DNA of 64,000 nt from Eledone cirrhosa (lineage: Eukaryota): contig OZ024742.1 of the NCBI GenBank assembly GCA_964016885.1, positions 273,172,001 to 273,236,000 on the forward strand, written 5' to 3'. The position numbers and the translations under genes are program-made. Of the stretch, positions 489 through 54,000 are shown piece by piece. The notes below the pieces were generated by a model, which saw only the letters and a program-made list of their open reading frames with translations, made no database searches and had not been told where the DNA came from. Each line of letters opens with the position of its first letter. Position 1 is the stretch's first letter.

Positions 489-592
489 CCTTATCAGTAA
501 AGTACATTAACATATAAATTACTTTATATTTCCTTCTTCTATACACACACACACATATATATATATAAATATATATATACATATATATATAA

Positions 593-644
<52 letters not shown>

Positions 645-648
<4 letters not shown>

Positions 649-1788
649 GAATAAAGTTTGTCCTTCATCAGTGGTCTTCCAACCATCATAGGCATTTCAT
701 CGCTTTAAAGACCATATACCTCCGGTTGGTGCGAGCAACTGCTAAAAAAAGTCGTTGGGACACGTAAATAAAGGGGATGCGAGGGTAAACAAACAAAATG
801 GTGAAGCAACAGAAAGTGAAGAAGAGAGAGACAAGTCCCAGATTTCTATGAATCTAAATTCGGTGAAATCGTGAACGAGAGAATAAAGACCATCAAACCT
901 GGTTGAAATGTGAGCAAGGAAGGAATTTCGCACAGGTCTAACGGGAGGAAGAAGGGGGTCTGGTCTGCGAATTCGGTAAACATAAGTACTGTGAAATCGT
1001 AGACGAGAGAGAGAGAAAAAAAAAAAAAAAATTCATACCAGCTTGGCCAAGAGTGCGCGAGGAAAGAATTACACACAGGTAAAACGGGAAGAAAGGGGAG
1101 GAGGAGAGGTAGTGACAGAGAATGAGTGAGTGAAGGGTGAGGAAGAGGCTAACAGAGAGAGAGACTGCTAGAAAGGGTAAAGATACATAAAACGAAATAG
1201 ACGGGTAGCAGCAGATTTCGTTCTATGTATCTTTACCCTTTCTAGCAGTCTCTCTCTCTGTTAGCCTCTTCATCACCCTTCACTCTCTCATTCTCTGTCA
1301 CTACCTCTCCTCCTCCTCTTTCTTCCCGTTTGACCTGTGTGTAATTCTTTTCTCGCGCACTCTTGACCAAGTTGGTATGAATTTTTTTTTCTCTCTCTCT
1401 CTCGTCTACGATTTCACAGAACTTATGTTTACCGAATTTGCAGACCAGACCCCTTCTTCCTCCCGTTAGACCTGTGCGAAATTCCTTCCTTGCTCACATT
1501 TCAACCAGGTTTGATGGTCTTTATTCTCTCGTTCACGATTTCACCGAATTTAAATTAATAGAAATCTGGGACTTGTCTCTCTCTTCCTCACTTTCTGTTG
1601 CTTCACCATTTTGTTTGTTTACCCTCGCGTCCCCTTTATTTACGTGTCCCAACGACTTTTTTTAGCCGTTGCTCGCACCAACCGGAGGTATATGGTCTTT
1701 AAAGCGATGAAATGCCTATGATGGTTGGAAGACCACTGATGAAGGACAAACTTTATTCATATGTAACCCATTTGCAACTCCGCAGCGT

Positions 1789-1827
<39 letters not shown>

Positions 1828-2533
1828 TAAAGTTAGTCCTTCATCAGTGAATCTTCCAACCTTCATTAGAATATCATCGCTTTAAAGACCATATACCTCC
1901 GGTTGGTGCGCGCAACCGCTAAAGAAAGTCGTTGGGACACGTAAATAAGGGGAACGAGCGAAACTGTAAACAATCAAAGATGGTAATACAACGAAAAGTC
2001 AGGAAGCAGGAGTCAAGTCCCAGATTTCTATGAATATAAGTTCGGTGAAATCGTGGACGAGAGAGAATAAAGACCAGCAAACCTAGTCGAAATGTAAGCA
2101 AGGAAAGAATTCCGCAAGGTCAAACGGGAGGAAGAAGGAGTCTAGTCCCGGAATTCGGTGAACGCAAGTTCTGTGAAATCGTAGACAAGAGAGAAAAAAA
2201 GGAAAAACCAACCTGGTCAAGTGTGCGCGAGAAAAGAATTACGCACAGGTCAAACGGGAGGAAGTTGAGAGGGAGTAGAAGATAGTGAGTGAGAGAAGGG
2301 TGCGGAAGAGACTAACAGAGAGATTGACTGTTAGAGAGGGTAAAGGGAGGTGAAAGATACAGAGAAAGAGGAAGCAGTAAGAATGAAATAGATGGGTCAG
2401 GGCGGAGGGAAATATATGTGTGAATATGAAAACAAAACGTGCTGCGTGGTTGCTAAAGGGTTACATATGAATAAAGTTAGTCCTTCATCAGTGATCTTCC
2501 AAACTTCATTGGTATTTCATCGCTTTAAAGACC

Positions 2534-2572
<39 letters not shown>

Positions 2573-2680
2573 ATATATAAAGAACATGAGAAGAAAGAAG
2601 AATACTGCGTGGTTGCACATGGGTTACATATGATAAAATTAGTCCCTCGTCAGTGATTTGCCAACCATCATTGGTATTAT
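645..2680. repeat. Family A non-coding ~640-700 bp unit cluster (inverted pair ~645-1200 / ~1220-1760, then minus-strand tandem copies), each with a hammerhead-like motif
   Basis: Near-identical inverted and direct copies, internal ~130 bp sub-duplication, flanked by (TA)n; related copies at 39582-40450. Confidence 0.85.
1678..1747 (+). ncRNA. Candidate type II (permuted) hammerhead with possible pseudoknot, family A
   Basis: ccaacc..gtcttt..GAAA-tgcc-TA-tgat-ggttgg-aag-acca-CTGATGA-aggac; GAAA lies before CTGATGA. Confidence 0.45.
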
Positions 2681-2940: not shown

Positions 2941-3342
2941 CTATTATGTTTCCTCTCGTTGCATTGTATGCTTACGCCATCTTTATTTAGTCTGTTTATT
3001 TATTTATTTATTTGTTTATTTTTCGTCTTCTCTGCGCATGCGTTTGCGTGTGTGTATAGTGTTTTGTTTGATTTGTGTTCTTGTTTGGGTGACTGTCTAT
3101 TGGTTAATGTAGTCTATCTTAGTTTACTAGTGTGTCTTTATATGTGTTTGTTGTTATTGTGCTCGTTTATGTATTTATTTATTTATTGATTTATTTATAC
3201 TTCTCTTAGGTCAGTGTTGTTTGTTTGGGTGTTGTTTTTATTCCATTCATTTTTTTCTCTTTAGCCTTGGCCTTCTAAGTTACATTTAGCTGGCCTCTCG
3301 ATCAGAATATTAAACTTAGCACTACTTGACATTGCTGAGTTT

Positions 3343-4170
3343 TTGAGTATCAGTACTGCTAAGTTTAATATTCTGATCGCAGACTTGGTACGAGTGATGA
3401 AGAACGTGTCCCGCATGTGCGACCCAACAGAAATGGAAAGAGACATCCAACAGTTCATCAACCGCATGCAGTTCTCTGGCTACAACCAAAGAGACAGAAT
3501 CAGAGTATACGAAGGAGCCACGGAGAAGTATAAGACCCTCATAGAACTGGATATGAAAGGAATTTGCCCATTATACAGGAGCAAATCATGGAATAGCTTA
3601 GATAGGACTAGACATAAAATAGGGAATGCCACCACATGGTACGACAACCAGAGATACGAGAGTGTCATGTTTGTGGCGCGACCCCTGGTGGGAAATTAGC
3701 TAACCAGTGTAGAAAGGCTCTGAGAAAGACCCACTTAAAGGTTAAGGTGGTAGAAAAGCCAGCAACCACCATAAAATCCCTGATCAGCAAAACCTACCCT
3801 TTTAAGAAAATCCGCTGTACTAATAGGAAATGTATCATATGTAGAGTAAACTCCCGGATAAACTGTAAAACTAGAAACGTAGTCTATAGCATAAGATGTA
3901 CAGAGGGTACTTGCAGAAACATGACAACAGCATACATAGGCGAGACAGCTCGTAGCATAAGTGAAAGGATACACCAACACTGGGGGGGGGGGACTAAAAG
4001 GACGAAAAAACGGTTCAGTACTATACGAACATGCCAGACAACAACACAACGGTAACATAGACAACATAGAAGTTAGAATAATATCTAAACATAGAAATGA
4101 CCCAGCAGATAGGCAAATCAGAAAGGCCAGCTAAATAGAACTTAGAAGGCCAAGGCCAAACAGAAGAAAA
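3343..4170 (+). pseudogene. PLE RT thumb / GIY-YIG endonuclease, frameshifted
   Basis: CIIC..NCKTRNVVYSIRC..AYIGETARSISERIHQH is a GIY-YIG-type motif; two frameshifts. Confidence 0.85.
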
Positions 4171-39581: not shown

Positions 39582-39585
<4 letters not shown>

Positions 39586-40450
39586 AATAATGATGGCTGC
39601 GCGTTGCAAATGGTGGGGCATATGAAAAAGTAAGTCCTTCATCAGTGACCCTCCAACCGTCCTAGGCATTTCATCGCTTTAAGGGCCATATGCCTCAGGT
39701 TGGTGCGAACAACGGCTAAAAAAAGTCGTTGGGACACGTAAACAAAGGGGACGCCAGGGTAACAAACAAAAAGGTTTAAGCAACGGAAAGTGAGAAGAAA
39801 TAGACAAGTCCCAGATCTCTATGAATATAAACTCGGTGAAATCGTGAACAAGAGACAAAAGACCATCAAACCTGGTTGAAATGTGAGCAAGGAAAGAATT
39901 TCGCACAAGTCTAACGGGGGGGGGGAGAGAAGAAGAAGAAGAAGAAGAAGAAGAAGAAGAAGAAGAAGAAGAAGAAGAAGAAGAAGAAGAAGATAAAGGG
40001 GTCTGGTCTACGAATTCGGTAAACATAAGTTTTGTGAAGTCGCAGACGAAAGAGAGAGAGAGAGAAAAACATTTCCATACCAGCTTGGTCAAGACCGCGC
40101 GAGAAAAGAATTACACACAGGTCAAACTTGAAGGACGAGGAGGAAAGAGGAGGAGGAGAGGTAGTGACAGAGAATGAGTGAGTGAAAGTTGAGGAGGAGG
40201 CTAACAGAGAGGGAGACTGCTAGAAAGGGTAAAAGGTAACAAACAGACGAGTGGCAGCAGAAGAAAAATTATGTGTAAATATGATGATAATGATGGCTGC
40301 GCGTTGCAAATGGTGGGGCATATGAAAAAGTAAGTCCTTCATCAGTGACCCTCCAACCGTCCCAGGCATTTCGTCGCTTTAAGGGCCATATGCCTCAGGT
40401 TGGTGCGAACAACGGCTAAAAAAATCGTTGGGACACGTAAACAAAGGGGA
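39582..40450 (-). repeat. Family A tandem, period 700 bp
   Basis: gatggctgcgcgttgcaaatgg at ~39592 and ~40292; HHR-like motifs at 39634-39703 and 40334-40403. Confidence 0.85.
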
Positions 40451-41238: not shown

Positions 41239-43125
41239 TTAAGTGTTCGATTTGTAGTGCGAAAATTTCTCTTTGAGTCTATGGTTACAATAAATTGATG
41301 TCTCAATTTTATTGTTGAGTAACCTATTCTTCGAACTTAAGATGTGGAACAGCTCAAGGTCGCATAATCGACAGCTTCTCATACCACTCCGAAATGGGGG
41401 CGCGTTTGATAATTTTTTCCACTTCAGGGTGTATTGATGGTTACTTTCCCTCAGTTGCCAGGTCTTGTTTGCAAGGGTAGTTACATAACGGTGCTGGGAA
41501 TGTTTCATTGCGTAACGGTGTGTATACCAACGAGCTTTAAAAGTATTCCCAGTCGCTCCGATGTAATATCATTGCTGGTTGTCTGATTCCACTGTGCATT
41601 GGTAAACCAGGTTAGACTGCATACATTCATTTTGTAATGGACAGGTTTCAGGTAGGTGGCAGTTGCATTTCTTGTGGGCTGCGATACCCGAACAAGTGTG
41701 TTACGTTTTGTTTGCCTATTAGCGGGTGGTTGTGTATTAGATATTCTGTTGTGTTCGGTGGTAATTGTATTGTTATTGTTGTAAATTTGTGTTTTGGTGT
41801 TGTTATGTATCTTTTTAGCGTTAAGCATCTTAATGTGTGCTTCTATATTTGGTGCCGTGGAGCAGGATAGTCTAATAGATTTAGTGTTAAGGATTTTGCT
41901 GTATCTATGTGAATCTGGAAAGTGCCTATTTATTATTCTAAAGAAAGCAGAGGGTAGGTTAGTACTAATAGAGGTGTTAAATATGGGGTTATACCAAATA
42001 TATTTTCTACTGCGTGACTTGTTTGATTTCGATGTTGTACTTCTATTTGCCGTATACTTTGCAGTTCTATGCGTAAATGTGTGTATGCGTGTGTTTCTGG
42101 AGTTTGTGTTATGCGTGTTCGTGTGTGCTTCACAGAGGCTTTCATCTATATATTCTACTCTATCTAAGTGGCCTGCCTTGTCTAATGCGGTATTGTAGTA
42201 TTCTACATGTTCTTCGAAGATTTGCCGGTTAGATGAGAGGCGGGAGATCCTAAGGGATATACTGCGTGGAATGAATTTAATTATTGATAGTGGGTGGTTT
42301 GAGTTACAGTTGATGTATGCTAAGTTTTCATTAATCTTGTGAAAAGGTCTTATAAGTCCCGTATTTAGGTTAAGCGTCACATCTAGAAAGTTAACTGTTT
42401 TAGTGCTATACTCGTACGTTATGCTAAGGTCTAGTTTTCCGAGAGTCTTTCTAATATTCTTACGGAGTCTTTCTATGCTCTGGTTATTTAGGTTCTTAAC
42501 TAGGAGAAGGGCGTCGTCTCTGTAGATTCCACCGTGAAGGTCGCTAAACTCGCTTTGTAAACTATGGGCTATGTAAATACCTACTAAGTCTGTAACTTGA
42601 GCCAATAGGCGTTTTCAAATATAATTATTGTTTTTCTAGCAGCTAATATGATTTTTATCTCGTCGTCTGTTATGTCAGAATTGGCTTTGGCGAATGCTAA
42701 GGCTTTATCCAAGGTGTTGGGGGATATAGATGAGTAATAATCGTTAATGTCAAATTGTATAAATTTAGATACTTCTTTGTTAGCTATATTGTTAAACCAT
42801 TTAATTGTTTCGGTAGCCTTACTTCATACTTTAATCACTAGTTTATTCTTCATTTGTGCTATCACTCTGTCTAATATATGTTTACTAATTTTCCCGATGT
42901 CCGATTTGGATGGGCATATAAGTCTAATAGTGGGGTTATAATCAAAATTTACCTTGTGGTCTTTGAGGTTAAATGTGGGGTTTACATGGCTTAAGTGGCT
43001 CCGTTCTGTCGTCTATTCCTAGGTGTTTGACTATATTGTGTGCCTCGTTGTTGATGTTTATCAGTGCCGCCTCATTTGTTTTTTTGTATTTCCTATGTAA
43101 TTCTTTCCGTATGAAGCTATTGTAT
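41239..43125 (-). pseudogene. PLE reverse transcriptase and GIY-YIG, frameshifted
   Basis: GGIYRDDAL, VNFLDVTLNL, SNHP, YIWYNP, CRLCDLE..LLN..CNH. Confidence 0.9.
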
Positions 43126-44740: not shown

Positions 44741-45044
44741 GCAGAGTAATTCGTGGTGGCAGGGATGGTCAGTAAGAATGTGTCTGAAAGCAATGGGGGG
44801 TAATTTAGCATGTCAAAAGATATTTTTCAGCTTTTGATTCACACAAAATGAAAATTCGAACAATTCCAAAATGGAACAAATCCCTCAGAGACAGAAAGTT
44901 CTCATTCTGGAAGATGATACAAAATCACAACAAAGCAGAGATATATGAAAAATGGGTTAAATCAACCCCACTAACTCCCCCCGTAAACTACAAATAAAGT
45001 CCATTCCAAATGAACCCGAACCTCAAAGACACCTTAGGGAAAGA

Positions 45045-45902
45045 ATGGTATTGGAAAAGAATACAGAAATTGAACTTATTAAACTGAGGGCCCAAACAAA
45101 TGAGGAAAAAATCAAAACAATCGATGAAGAGATCCTCCTGGAAATCAACAACAAAACTGAAGGCCCCAAGGTAGAGAAGATCTCCAAATTATGGAAAGGG
45201 GACTGCAACAGAGAAGAACTGAAATCCCTTCAACGCTGGGAAAAAAGTGCCGCTTGGTTCCTACACTATGAATCGACTTTTCAAACGGATTACACCTCCA
45301 ATAACCCGTTCATAAAAATAGGAAAACCCATAACTGAACCGCACAACAACTTCTCAAACCCCCAAGCCTCTAACAAACGAAGAAGGAAGCAGCACACCGA
45401 AGATGAACTTCCCAACCTCGCTACCATAAGAAGGAACAAAAACCCAAGAAATCATCTCCCCCAGAATAACATTTACAACTTTCCCCCTTCAAGGAGACAC
45501 CATACCAAATCACTCAACTACTACGCGGATGCCTCATCGTCAAACATAGGGAAAATATACCACCGCCATGATAGATGTAACAACTTCCCCGCTTCAAGAG
45601 GACAGCAAGGTAATTACCATTTTCTCAACTCTCGCTTCCACAATACACAACAAACCCACACCACACGATACAACCAACAAAGTAGGCCACTTATAACATC
45701 ACAATACAACATGGCACATAGAAACACACACCCATACTCGCAGTACAGGAACACCCCATTCAATCTACAACCACCAACCCGAACCACATTTTACAACAAC
45801 AAGGAATATAACAAACACAGGAGACCACTTAACATCAGCAGACAACCCCTCTACCCCAACCATTTTTTAGACACAGCACACAGATACAGGCAAACAAAAT
45901 AA
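45045..45902 (+). CDS. PLE upstream ORF (coiled-coil N-terminus, basic low-complexity tail)
   Basis: 285-aa ORF directly upstream of the RT ORF. Confidence 0.55.
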   Translation: MVLEKNTEIELIKLRAQTNEEKIKTIDEEILLEINNKTEGPKVEKISKLWKGDCNREELKSLQRWEKSAAWFLHYESTFQTDYTSNNPFIKIGKPITEPHNNFSNPQASNKRRRKQHTEDELPNLATIRRNKNPRNHLPQNNIYNFPPSRRHHTKSLNYYADASSSNIGKIYHRHDRCNNFPASRGQQGNYHFLNSRFHNTQQTHTTRYNQQSRPLITSQYNMAHRNTHPYSQYRNTPFNLQPPTRTTFYNNKEYNKHRRPLNISRQPLYPNHFLDTAHRYRQTK

Positions 45903-45935
45903 CACAAGACAGGGAGGAGAAACCGATAGTAATAA

Positions 45936-47960
45936 AAAATTATCAATCTTACTAGTGCAGAACCAACACCCAACCTTATCAACTTACTCTCCAAAGGTCT
46001 TAAATTCACACCGACCCCACTACGTCCTAACTACTATGAAATGAAGGAAGACATCACCGACTTCTGTAGAAAGTTACGACTTAGTGAACAACTATTCGAC
46101 CAGTACAATGAGGATGAATCATTAGCCAGAAATAGAAGCAATTACACCCCTTCAAAAGGTAGAAATAAAATCCTGGACGAATTCTGTGAACACATCACAA
46201 ACTTCCCTTACCAACACTTGCACAGACAAAAAGACAAGCCAAACCTCAACAAGAAAGAATGGGAAGAATTAAATAGATTAAAAACCGACAGAACCATTAC
46301 AATTAAAGAGGCTGATAAAGGGAGTACAGTAGTCCTAATGGAGACATAATTCTATATCAACTTAGCGCTCTCCACTTTGGAAAACGAAACATACTACGAA
46401 AAGGCTGAACACTACAATCAACAGAAAATTATGAGAAACCTAAAAACTCTAATCAACCAATACAAAGAAGGACTCACTAACAAGGAATTCAGCTTCATCA
46501 CAGACTTCACAAGTAAATCCAGCCTTTTCTACGGTATCCCTAAAGTACATAAAAGCGAATCAATAAGTAAGGCATGCAAGGAAGCCACAGACATAGTCAT
46601 CAATGTCCTCTCACCCAATGATCTCAAATTAAGACCTATAATAGCAGGCCCCGCTTGCGAAACGCACCGTCTTAGCAACTTCATTGATACCCTTCTCAAA
46701 CCCTTCCTCAAGCACATCAAAAGCTATATAAGGGACGACCTAGATATGCTCAATCACCTCCCTAATATGCCACTTCCTGAACAAACCCTACTAGTGACCT
46801 TCGATGTAGTCAACCTATACTCCAACATCCCCCACAACCTAGGAATAGAAGCTATCCAATTCTGGCTGGATAATTTCCACAATGAACTCCCACAACGCAT
46901 CAAAAAAGAATTCGTGATAGAGGGACTCAAATTTAGCTTGGAGAACAATTACTTCGTTTTCAATAACAAACCCTACAGGCAGAAATCTGGGACTGCTATG
47001 GGAACGAAAACAGCCCCCACTTATGCCAACCTAGTCATGGGATACCTGGAAATCACCCTCTACACTAAAGTCCTAAACAAATTTGGAAACACCCTCCACT
47101 TACACATTGAAAGGAACTGGAAGCGATATCTAGATGACTGCTTCATCGTTTGGCACGAAAACATCGAAAAACTTAAAGAATTTCACACCCTTATAAATGG
47201 GCTCAACACAAATATTAACTTCACGAAGGAATACAGCCATCAACAACTCCCCTTCCTCGACATCCTCATTAAGATCCATAACAAAAAAATAGAAAGAGAC
47301 ATATACTACAAGCCCACAGACTCCAAGCAATATCTCCCCTTCAACTCTTCCATACATCTCCACACACAACCCCCTCAACAATGAGGCCTTTGACACCATC
47401 CTCCAGAACATCCCTGTATTGAAAAAGGACCATAGAATGAACCAAATTCTACGAACACACGATATCATAAAGAGCAAAAGACAATCCAAGTCAATGAAAA
47501 ACATCTTAACACATGCCAAAGTACAACGAAACCACAACAACGAAACCCACAGTAAAAAAAATGCGATAGACCCAACTGTGGCATTTGCATCAACCTAATA
47601 GAGGGTTCGGAAATCTATTTCAAAGATGGACAACGTTTTATAGTAAAACACAATTTCACATGTGCATCGGAAAATCTAATATATGTATTAACTTGTTCAG
47701 GTTGTCGAGAACAATACATAGGCCAGACCAAAAACAGCCTCCGCCAACGCATGACTGTCCATAGATCCCAAATTAAAATACGGGAATACAGGAAAATACC
47801 ACTGAGTGAACACATTGATACCTGTGCCGCCCAAAATCATCCCAACTTCAGAATCTTTCCCCTCTACAAATTTAAAGATAATGCCACCCACACCCAGCGC
47901 ATCAGCAAGGAATCTTACTTCATTAACAAATACGGACCCCGTCTAAACACTTCTCCCTAA
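45936..47960 (+). pseudogene. Neptune-like PLE RT + GIY-YIG (one nonsense codon at 46347, internal deletion at ~47345, frameshifts)
   Basis: LSKGLKFTP, KEADKG, FYGIPKVHK, RPII, FDVVNLYSNI, GTAMG, RYLDD, FLD, FTCASENLIYVLTCSGCREQYIGQT..QRMTVH. Confidence 0.95.
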
Positions 47961-48640
47961 GACGAAACCACAACATACACACGTCAACATACATACCTAC
48001 ATCAGCACACATCTCTACCCACATATAAACACAATGACATACGTAAACACACATGCTCTATGGTGCAACACAAAAAAATATATGTGCATATATATGTGTA
48101 TCTATATGTATATATGTATATATATATATATATATATGTATATAGTGAATATATGTATGTGTGTATATATATATAGTGAATATCATTTCACACCTTTTAT
48201 TGTTAAGATTTTTGATGTTCTATGAAGAGAACCGATTTTACTGAAAAAATCGAATAATGTACACCATTTTACCAGGGGGAATAAAATACTGGTCCACCCA
48301 CACACACACACACACACACACATACACACGCGTACATCAACATACAAAGAGACTTATATATACACACACACACACACGCACTTCTCCGTATAAGACAAAA
48401 GCTGAAAAATATCTTTTGACATGCTAAAATACCCCCCATTGCTTTCAGACACATTCTTACTGACCATCCCTGCCACCACGAATTACTCTGCTCCCCCCCC
48501 CCCACCCCCCCCACACACACACTTATCTCAATAGCCATTTGACACACATCGCTGCTAACCATTATCACAACATCGAACACCTTACTAGACTTCTATAAGA
48601 ATCAAACATTCATGGTTTTCAGCAAACAGGAGGAGTAGTT

Positions 48641-48685
48641 AGCTTTGATGAGCACCAAAAAGTGCGAAACAGGACTCTGTCAGCT
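48641..48685 (+). ncRNA. Type I hammerhead with extended stem I (family L)
   Basis: agct-TTGATGA-gcac/caaaaa/gtgc-GAAA-cag/gact/ctg-TC-agct; outer helix 48616-48708; second copy at 61646-61738 (-). Confidence 0.8.
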
Positions 48686-48810
48686 TTATCTCCTCTGTCT
48701 GCTGAAAATTAAAAAAAGTGAGACTGTCACTACTCTAAAACAATAGGGCAAGGTCTTCGAAATGCTTTTAAATAAGCATAGAGTGTATTGCAAAATACAC
48801 TATATATACA

Positions 48811-51008: not shown

Positions 51009-54000
51009 AATTTGTCCTGGGTATGACATTAAACTACATCCAGTGGCAAGACTCCAGTTCGGGAGTTCTGGAGTTGTCATAACTCCCAGGTCTGCTCTGG
51101 CCCGCAGTGGTAGTACCTGTTAGGTCCCCATTTATGGGTTAAATAACTACTATATTCGAGTGGCGTCGGTAAGGTATTGTCAGCCATTGAAAAGAAATAT
51201 GGAGAGTCTATCTAACAGAACTGGGGTTAGAACACCTAATTACACTATCAAGGAGCAGTCTGGTCATTAGGACACTGCTGGCTTGGAGCCAGAGGGAGGG
51301 CCAGTGGATGATGGATCAGCTGTCTCTGAGACAAATATAAATAATGCAGTTTTTTCCTGCAGAAGAGCCATCGAATAGGGCACTTTTAATGTGAGGACTA
51401 TTCGGACGCTGGAAAAGAGAGAGGAGTTGGGACATATGTTCGAGGAGACTGGTATACAGATACTTGCGATCCAAGAACACAGGATCCTACACGATGGGCC
51501 CATGATGAGTGTGATGATTGGGAAGATGAGCCAGCTCATCACCACATCGACAGTGAGGAACATGACCAATGCTGCAGTGGGAGGAGTGGGTTTTGTTTTC
51601 AGCACAAAAACCAGTCTATTGGTGAGGGAAATAATACCTGTCTCCCCGCGAGTGTTGAGGGTCATCGTCAATGGAAACCCAAGACTGACAGTCATCTCAG
51701 CCTATAGTCCAACCGAGGGAGACAGTGATGTGAGTGCGGAAGAGTTCCATGAGGAGGTGTGTAGAGCTATCAACACCACACAAGCACACAACATCCTGTT
51801 TGTTGTGGGGGACTTCAATGCACATCTGAGTAAGGAGGGCAGTGAAGATCCTTGCTGATACTTCCATAACAAGACCAACCGAAAGGGAAGACTGCTGAGA
51901 GATACCCTGCTAGAGGCGAACTTGATAGCGACCACCCTAAAGTGTAGGAAGAATCCTGGGAAGATGTGGACCTACATCTCAGATATGCACCTGGCCAAGT
52001 CCAAGATTGATTTCATTCTGGTGAGGAAAAAGTGGCTGAATAATGTTCTGAACACAGAACCATACAACTATTTCAGTACACTGGGAGGTGACCACCGGCT
52101 TGTTATGAGTGAGGTCCGGGTGAGCTTAAGAAAGAACAAGGCTCAGCCCCGGCGAGCAATCTATGACTGGGGAGCTTTCAAGGAAGATGATCAGCTACAG
52201 GAGAGGTTCACAGTGTAAGTGAGGAACAGGTTAAGTGCTCTGTATAGAGAGGCAGATTGGAAGGACTGAGGAGAGTGTGACGAAGGGGTACGGGAACTTC
52301 ACCAATGCAGTGGCGGAAGCAAGTGAGACCCGGGGGCCGAGGAGAGAGAACAAAAGGAAGCTCGTCAGCTCTGCAGACCCAAAAGTGTGTGCAGCCAGAG
52401 AACATCTGAAAGCTGCCAAGGACCAATTCTATGCTGATCCTACGGAGGAGAGGATGGAGACTGTGGAGGTGATGAGGGAAGAACTCTGTACCGCTTACAC
52501 TGAGGCCAGAGAGGAGGCACTGGTAGATAAGATCAGAAGTGTGGAGATAGCGGTTGACAGGTCTGGATGTAAGGAGGGCTGGATGATCATCAATGAGATC
52601 ACAGGGAGGAAGAGAATGTGTTCGAGTCAGATCCAGGGAACAGGGCCCGAGCATAGGCAGAGGAAATTAGCTAGACCATTTTAGGACCCAAACTTGGAGA
52701 ACCGCCCTCCACAGCCCAGAGCACTGGGGAGATTTTGATGATATCATCCTGGGGTTCTGTAACCAATCATTGGAGAAAGGAGTTGCCCCGAATCAGTGGA
52801 GGATCAGTAACATCGTCCCAGTGCCAAAGAAGGGAGATCTCTCTAACACAAACAACTACAAGGGGATCTCACTGACGTCACTTGTGGCAAAGACACTCAA
52901 CATGATGATTCTTAACAGGATCCATCCTGAGATGGAGAAGAAGCACAAGGACAACCAGAACGGCTTCAGAGAGGGAAGATCAACCACCAGTCACATCCTG
53001 ATGATGGGGTGGATATTAGAGGTATCTAGAGCAAAGTGCCTTCCTGCCATCATGGTTTTCATTGACTTTAGGAAGGCCTTTGATTCCGTGGACCGTCACT
53101 GCCTGATGAAGATCTTACAGGCTTATGGAATCCCCAAGAAGATAGTGGACCTGATATCACTGCTCTACACCAACAACTAAGCCCAAGTCATTACACCTGA
53201 TGAAAGAGTTATTTGAGATACTGGCTGGAGTGCTCCGGTGAGATACATTGGCTCCCAAACTTTTTATCATCGTAGTGGACTATTGTATGCGCCTTGCACT
53301 GGAGAAACACCAGGACTCTGGCTTTACTGTTGCACCGGCTCAGAGCAGGAGAGTTAGGGCGAAAAAGATATCGGATGCTGAATTTGCCGACGACATAGTT
53401 TTGGTGACAAATACAGTGAATGAGGCAGAGGATTTGATGCAGGAAGTTGAGACGGTGTTGATGAGTTTGGAGCTGAGAATGAATGAGACTAAAACAAAAT
53501 ATCTGGTAGAGAATGTTAAGAAGCCAGATGTGATCACTAATGTAGGCGGGAAGCCACTAGAATTGGTTGAGGACTTCTTGTATTTGGGAGCAAAGATTGG
53601 GAATACGGAAGATGATGTGGTTGAGAGGAAGAGAAAAGCCTGGGCGGCGTGCCACAGCTAGAGATCGGTGTGGAAGTCGGACCTTCGTAAAGACCTGAAA
53701 ATCCGCCTCTTCATTGCTCTAGTGGAGTATGTGCTGCTATACGGGTCTGAGACTTGGACACTGACCAAGAAACTCACTCATATGGTGGATGGGTGCTACA
53801 CGAGAATGCTGAGGATAGCTCTGAACATTAATCAGTATACACTCTGTATGAAAGACTCAGAGCTGTATGGGAGCCTCCCAAATGCCAGCTCAAAATTGAC
53901 ACAGAGGAGACTGAGGTTAGCTGGAAATGCTGACCGACATCCAGAGTTGACATTGCACTAAGTGCTCCTGTGGGAGCCCTAACATCGACACACTGGAAGT

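Follow-up and report, generated by a model that had tools for sequence, protein, structure and literature searches.

A predicted hammerhead in non-circular S-G-C order in ORF-less, retrozyme-like repeats of Eledone cirrhosa, and its likely descent from Naiad-clade Penelope elements

The window analysed here is a stretch of 64,000 nucleotides of Eledone cirrhosa DNA (GCA_964016885.1, contig OZ024742.1, positions 273,172,001 to 273,236,000, forward strand), taken from a genome of 3.0 Gb in which TTAGGG arrays stand at 2 of the 16 contig ends checked. It holds seven CUGAYGA cores of one repeat family, family A, with C3 at 1736 on the plus strand and at 671, 1847, 2491, 2653, 39645 and 40345 on the minus strand. 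The first-pass annotation had noticed these copies and sorted them into complete (1678+, 660-, 39634-, 40334-) and partial or degenerate ones (1836-, 2480-, 2643-), and the division stands: a descriptor of the five-helix fold set out below matches exactly four complete copies in the window and nothing in one reversed and three shuffled controls, while the copy at 1836 has a broken GAAA, that at 2480 starts at the predicted cut and that at 2643 is without its S and G blocks. Also borne out are the position of GAAA 5' of CUGAUGA, the head-to-tail spacings of 644 and 700 nt and the lack of an ORF: the frames of at least 100 aa inside the units are stop-to-stop and of low complexity.

The copies lie among (TA)n arrays. 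A 5'-truncated subfamily 1 unit (1215..1791, +) ends in (TA)n about 100 nt past its predicted cut; its inverted partner (645..1198, -), 95.9% identical to it, carries a complete ribozyme at 734-664 with a predicted cut at 715^714 and likewise has its 3' end in (TA)n, here the array at 555..648 that adjoins the copy with C3 at 671. The pair (645-1791) is arranged head-to-head. The array at 1792..1824 is common to the 3' ends of two converging insertions, the second of which belongs to subfamily 3 (1825..2534, -): it starts at the predicted cut (2534), runs through one 643-nt monomer and enters a second ribozyme (about 1911-1840), the one with the broken GAAA. A further array (2534..2579) separates the 5' end of this insertion from the 3' end of a subfamily 4 fragment (2580..2678, -), which retains the 3' strands of stem III and helix IV, the C block and the tail. 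Far from this cluster, a subfamily 2 tandem insertion (39583..40450, -) contains two complete ribozymes, at 40408-40338 and 39708-39638, with predicted cuts at 40389^40388 and 39689^39688 and thus a 700-nt monomer. Contigs of a sequencing run labelled as a second organism cover window positions 1642-1760 with 4 differences.

Family A has company. The window holds fragments of Penelope RT and GIY-YIG domains, whose nearest Atlas clusters are mostly animal, in three broken canonical Penelope elements (3265-4055, +; 41239-42614, -; 44961-47960, +); Pfam places RVT_1 at 46350 and GIY-YIG at 47556, with a weak second GIY-YIG match at 3618, and an RT fragment of L1/RTE type lies at 52671. Downstream of the third Penelope element, Rfam Hammerhead_HH9 gives a weak match that stays below the gathering score (48629-48703, +; 28.9 bits, E 0.004). 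Hammerhead-like motifs are frequent in the window in general: several other repeated CUGAYGA families, some with clear type I stems, occur at 2935(-), 27704(+), 31255(+), 417(+), 36736(-), 40805(-), 4883(-), 8134(-), 38018(-), 11790(+), 11468(-), 31715(-) and 61257(-).

What kind of hammerhead does family A carry? CUGANGA, GAAA and an N-U-H site are all present, and the block that completes the core, the S block, lies upstream of GAAA: it reads GGYAU-H, followed by one strand of stem I. In the complete subfamily 1 hammerhead at 1673..1743 (+), GGYAU (1687-1691) pairs with the strand after GAA (1712-1716) as stem III, and the strand after A1692 (1693-1699) pairs with the strand before CUGAUGA (1729-1735) as stem I. 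GAA occupies 1709-1711 and CUGAUGA 1736-1742, H17 is A1692, and U11.1 (1708) faces A1743. The blocks thus run cleavage site, GAAA, CUGAUGA (S-G-C), an order which no rotation of the usual arrangement gives, and on this pairing pattern family A is a hammerhead-bearing unit in non-circular S-G-C order rather than a type II hammerhead. Cleavage is predicted after GGYAU-H, at the AUA^U bond 1692^1693 (+), by analogy with the hammerhead core, from the excess of 5' junctions described below and from the composition of H17, which was no search anchor in the set concerned and is A in 126, C in 17 and G in 1 of 144 cores. Two more helices complete the model: helix IV (strand b, 1678-1683, with 1723-1728) and helix II' (strand a, 1673-1676, with 1704-1707).

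The model was scored on 111 unique, indel-free cores with intact upstream sequence, drawn from 287 pattern matches; duplicates and truncated copies were left out, and copies with indels failed the fixed-spacing pattern. It pairs in 96.9% of 2,442 cells, against 30-48% for slid controls, and 9 of its 22 pairs show two-sided changes (105 cells), which trace to a few subfamily founders and not to many independent events. Stems I and III are paired in 98.0% and 96.2% of cells (three pairs and one pair with two-sided change, respectively), and in families B-G both have different sequences with pairing retained. The complementarity of ccaacc and ggttgg, which the first-pass annotation had read as a loop pseudoknot, proves to be a real helix: it is helix IV, paired in 95.5% of cells with two-sided changes in 3 of 6 pairs. 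In subfamily A5 two pairs of helix IV are flipped (on strand b in 26 of 31 copies, on b' in 30 of 31), and 31 of 31 copies have U10.1-A11.1 together with H17 = C, which makes the site AUC; this young subfamily is found at L297:2745-2822 and L363-L392. The five-helix descriptor finds 289 matches, not deduplicated, in loci chosen for these families. CUGA.GA and GAAAU served as search anchors, so the invariance of the core is by construction and not independent evidence. Nested minimum-energy folding gives no significant result (z -0.3 to -1.7), which is to be expected of a knotted fold and is uninformative. With Rfam, family A had no hammerhead hit within the window at E<=1, nor did eight loci yield one at gathering score. 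Box C/D k-turn and pistol readings were both dropped, as the covarying stems fit a hammerhead core.

In the model, helix II draws on a strand 5' of the cut. The strand 3' of CUGAUGA pairs with the strand before GAAA in one pair only, 10.1-11.1, which is formed in 110 of 111 cores (A-U, G-U or U-A); the canonical G10.1-C11.1 is absent in family A. GCGA (1704-1707) pairs instead with UCGC (1673-1676), upstream of the cut, and this helix II' strand leads via one purine into helix IV, whose other strand runs straight into stem I. A conventional helix II with the downstream strand, in either register, is paired at 25-27% over 10 positions and was rejected; the strand after CUGANGA forms only 0.75-1.43 of 4 pairs, and the upstream strand pairs in its place. 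In family A alone helix II' is 97.7% paired with a compensatory change in 1 cell; because it is nearly invariant there, relatives were sought, and its support is cross-family. A descriptor yielded family B, with 1,089 cores (control 0), and two looser patterns yielded families C, D, D2, E and G (174 matches against 46 in the control; 242 against 18). Stems I, III and IV of these sister families differ in sequence yet pair. Their helix II' is GCGC/GCGC in families B and E, GUGC/GCAC in family G and, in a single D2 copy, GCAUGAG/CUCAUGU. Helices II' and IV can be found jointly upstream in 109 of 144 family A cores (39 in a far-upstream control, 40.6 in shuffled and 12.1 in swapped sequence), in 23 of 45 of family B (2, 1.8 and 0.8) and in 9 of 22 of families E/G (0, 1.4 and 0.1). 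The old families C (1 of 7 copies) and D (1 of 4) do no better than controls in this joint search; there, support for helix II' comes from column majorities and from a single clean copy (L358).

Family B comprises at least those 1,089 cores, in 753-804-nt tandem monomers with a GUC/GUU site, and forms G-C at 10.1-11.1 after one inserted base; copies lie at L204:2025-2110 (G000:C1:36393529) and L223-L282. An inserted base after A9 as a general rule fits family B (G-C in 27 of 28) but not A5, in which U-A pairs directly, and was discarded. The N-U-H rule is kept across families, H17 being A or C in family A and C or U in B. BLAST of family A against family B bodies gave low-complexity matches only, and the two were judged homologous by eye, from ribozyme and tail. 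At L283-L362 lie the older S-G-C families (C, D, D2, E and G), whose stems differ in sequence. Elsewhere, a 54-bp tandem array (G000:C2:136982600-136983790) has GUC, GAAAC and CUGAUGA in S-G-C order in each unit; its dispersed relatives (L361, L362) gave no clean fit.

Family A is abundant: an exact 22-base two-block pattern occurs 5,607 + 5,518 = 11,125 times genome-wide, and the reversed pattern not once. A pattern scan of metagenomes gave 32 matches, none with an S block, and these were judged to be chance occurrences in other sequence. The monomers measure 525-792 nt, are 67-71% pyrimidine, carry one hammerhead each and occur both dispersed and in head-to-tail tandems; the longest array noted has nine units (G000:C1:43918169-43924215, L217). 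The monomer is no more structured than its shuffles (z -0.57). Young subfamilies have best genome matches 98-100% identical. An unbiased set of 91 cores was assembled at 70 loci among the first 100 places listed. Of these cores, 18 stand next to another unit in tandem and 82 belong to copies that extend upstream past the predicted cut; of 73 terminal copies, 67 stop in TA/CA runs 61 to 123 nt beyond it. The 3' ends are fixed and the 5' ends scattered. With its 5' truncation, partial tandems, inverted 5' copies and microsatellite targets, family A shows Penelope-type insertion anatomy and is likely an ORF-less, non-autonomous retroelement, a non-LTR retrozyme. The earlier proposal of a hammerhead-bearing, ORF-less, tandem, retrozyme-like animal family of unusual topology was thus right.

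Do the insertions record the cut? Genome-wide, 307 copies start within -4..0 of the predicted bond, against 86-107 expected from background truncation, an excess of about 3-fold. Among 30 such starts inspected, 3 are point mutants, 13 are ambiguous, 12 lie at 0/-1 and 2 at -2/-3; the ambiguity stems from TATA microhomology, which affects 13 of 27 truncated 5' junctions. At 8 of 18 fold-back junctions judged by eye, one arm starts at the predicted cut. The 5'-junction excess offers modest, indirect support for RNAs that would start at the predicted bond. At G000:C2:193933808 and G000:C3:151839580, a few extra A/TA bases stand at the predicted cut, such as might come from imprecise re-joining.

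These features suggest a life cycle that we consider quite probable. Family A transcripts would self-cleave at AUA^U into unit-length RNAs, some of which would be re-joined, while other RNA might be left uncut; a Penelope-type RT/endonuclease would then nick a (TA)n tract, prime in the AU-rich tail and copy back through the cut site, usually stopping early and so leaving 5'-truncated, inverted and tandem copies. Must the ribozyme act as a single molecule to do so? Only 0-6 nt link stem III to helix IV on either strand, and such short joints strain a one-molecule fold: the near-continuous arm does not readily turn back to reach the two ends of the core, a geometric problem that Eckert et al. 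also flag for HRIMA-1 (PMC10085705). The same pairings could instead be satisfied in a dimer, in which one copy's S and G blocks dock onto strand a and block C of another, be it a tandem neighbour or another molecule, and in which single units are poorly active. Dimeric action is common among animal hammerheads, those of Penelope and salamanders included, and the tandem neighbours seen at 18 of the 91 cores would supply partners. Conversely, the blocks of family A all fit into 71 nt, RNA made from published single-unit SGC templates cleaves while it is being transcribed (PMC10085705), and fraying of about three distal pairs, an estimate from A-form geometry, could ease the strain. Given an active ribozyme, we put the chances of the dimer as its working form at about even; this would be a variant of the self-cleavage cycle and not a departure from it.

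A larger departure would be a fold that is conserved while family A cleaves barely or not at all, the structure serving recognition by the Penelope RT or a processing factor and the tandem copies arising from uncut read-through RNA or template jumping. Family A does without G10.1-C11.1. Where helix II is short or missing, hammerheads are slow, at 1e-2 to 1e-3 per min (PMC13725137); of nine Xenopus retrozyme dimers, eight gave no cleavage in vitro; and 82 of 91 copies here run across the predicted cut. Yet the N-U-H rule holds from family to family, 10.1-11.1 is paired in all cores of the alignment but one, and 5' junctions pile up at the very bond predicted to be cut; a fold of this inactive kind seems unlikely to us, though not negligibly so.

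Far less can be said for the type II hammerhead (order G-S-C) of the first-pass annotation, in which stem III is minimal, loop I forms a pseudoknot and the cut follows 1718. GAAA does stand 5' of CUGAUGA, and the stem I it proposed holds in part: 85.1% of its cells pair and it has two two-sided changes, but it is broken at two positions, in 24 and 31 of 111 cores, and its 3' strand pairs better with the upstream S block. The rest fails. The stem III pair of GAAA-tgcc-TA forms in 36 of the 111 unique cores; the TA at 1717-1718, taken for the cut site, is AA, TG or CA in major subfamilies; and the pairing of aaggac with gtcttt, which was to provide stem II and the pseudoknot, is formed in 67.6% of cells, with one pair in 3 and another in 42 of the 111. 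The whole model pairs in 80.2% of cells, against the 96.9% of the five-helix model, and one slid control exceeds its covariation score. The imperfect stems II and III that had been conceded as weak points are artefacts of the wrong pairing, and a type II hammerhead is accordingly very improbable. Since the predicted cut follows A1692 and not 1718, a cleavage assay read at 1717-1718 would inspect the wrong bond. Equally improbable is a DNA-level satellite or foldback repeat with incidental hammerhead letters, for which arrays of up to nine units and microsatellite-rich flanks might speak, against polarised ends, strand-specific G-U pairs, compensatory changes and the presence of the same fold, by eye, in autonomous Penelope elements.

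Those elements are the Naiads, Penelope elements of 3.4-4.4 kb that encode EN-RT, favour (TA)n and, according to Craig et al. (2021, PMC8557442), have no canonical hammerhead, although motifs termed "core" or "half core" are present in some. In the supplement to that paper, the five-helix fold can be recognized by eye at the 3' ends of 6 of 12 Naiad consensus sequences whose ends were examined in full (Naiad-3_Chem, Naiad-2_Movir, Naiad_Plae, Naiad_Obim, Naiad_Ovul and Naiad_Esco), from cnidarians, an acanthocephalan and cephalopods. Naiad_Ovul, for example, has II' GACACC/GGUGUC, III AUGGU-A/ACCAU and I CUGCCC/GGGCAG, and just upstream of its ribozyme shares short motifs with subfamily 4, again by eye. 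The fold was not seen by eye in Chem1, Chem2, Dcar, Omin, Adux and Skow1, three of which are listed as incomplete in the supplement, and Naiad_Bfor, with a 16-bp helix IV and a stem I of 2-3 bp, is a weaker case. In most fold-bearing Naiads the base after A9 cannot pair with 11.1, and the upstream strand supplies the 11.1 partner; the break thus lies at A9. Four other Naiads (Naiad-1_Nbra, Naiad-2_Nbra and two unnamed; PMC8557442, File S5) have the blocks in C-S-G order with full stems and appear, by eye, to carry complete type-CSG hammerheads, a type described from two metagenome sequences only.

In this genome, canonical Penelope copies also end in (TA)n, and canonical Penelope fragments near the family cores carry type I hammerheads of their own. 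Another conserved motif, GC-rich and perhaps reminiscent of an HDV-like ribozyme, lies early in the 3' UTR of Naiad-1_Chem, -2_Chem and -3_Chem (PMC8557442, File S5). The Naiad RT signature was not found in the 1.3 Mb of this genome examined, and tblastn with six Penelope fragments from the window revealed no ORF consistently upstream of the cores. Judging from sequence and insertion anatomy, family A is likely copied by Penelope-type retrotransposons, and the 3' UTR of Penelope elements of the Naiad clade is the likely source of its ribozyme.

On balance, and with somewhat less assurance than for the life cycle, we incline to a broader view: a widespread, overlooked animal lineage of non-circular hammerheads, one form of which has a new topology of four blocks with CUGANGA freed from helix II, may reside in Naiad 3' UTRs across several phyla and may have given rise to several families of retrozymes, which exceed 12,000 copies here. 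The literature searched, with subscription journals and bioRxiv supplements outside the search, held no prior description of non-circular hammerheads in animals or Naiads. If this is true, no earlier non-circular ribozymes would be known from eukaryotic genomes, the lineage would form a natural link from retrotransposons to viroid-like RNAs, and descriptors confined to type I would undercount animal retrozymes. If they cleave, non-circular hammerheads are abundant in animal DNA, in a topology beyond the published three-block scheme; the stated absence of hammerheads from Naiads would be overturned and their "half cores" explained. Thousands of natural variants, each with a precise predicted cut, make the monomer-versus-dimer question of SGC hammerheads directly testable.

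How does family A compare with systems already described? The first demonstration of non-circular permutations in RNA dates from 2023 and concerned contigs from metatranscriptomes and metagenomes, with one doubtful bacterial case. Type-SGC, represented by HRIMA-1, cleaves in vitro at 0.007-0.19 per min; it was found only in metatranscriptomes and in no known organism's genome (Eckert et al., 2023, PMC10085705), whereas family A has about 11,000 copies in animal DNA. As in HRIMA-1, the order is S-G-C, the core is full, the linker between stem I and helix II is short, and a fourth helix clamps the distal ends of stems I and II via about one purine. In HRIMA-1, however, the strand of helix II and the interaction helix follows CUGAUGA, while in family A the same strand lies 5' of the cut. 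Block C is consequently interrupted, which the authors assumed to be impossible; their descriptor requires an intact block C and would therefore miss family A (PMC10085705). Read from its pairings, the family A fold is the HRIMA-1 architecture opened at the A9/10.1-10.2 link, with the body of the element filling the gap.

The pseudoknotted hammerhead of PDB 8YDC likewise has a helix II of one base pair and a third strand paired to the strand that enters 11.1, but its block order is circular and its third strand is a hairpin loop (PMC11300833), whereas family A has a non-circular order and a third strand that continues into a three-way junction. With the minimal type I hammerheads of canonical Penelope pLTRs (PMC4209133), family A shares a retroelement context and possible action as a dimer; those hammerheads are type I, weak in helix III and long in helix II, while here stem III has 5-8 bp and the order differs. 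With Naiads (PMC8557442), it shares the (TA)n bias, 5' truncation, partial tandems and inverted 5' copies. Non-LTR retrozymes, with units of about 170-400 nt (Cervera and de la Pena, 2020, PMC7229834) or 51-972 (Li et al., 2026, bioRxiv 10.64898/2026.07.22.740005), resemble family A in being ORF-less, in occurring as monomers and tandems with one hammerhead per unit and in their co-occurrence with Penelope elements. Both papers define them by a type I hammerhead, in contrast to the S-G-C order of family A, and retrozyme circles are predicted to be stably paired, whereas the family A unit is pyrimidine-rich, not unusually structured and known here from DNA. On the strength of these sequence comparisons, family A would work like a type-SGC hammerhead in a non-LTR retrozyme and misses one defining feature of each: the intact block C of the former and the type I ribozyme of the latter.
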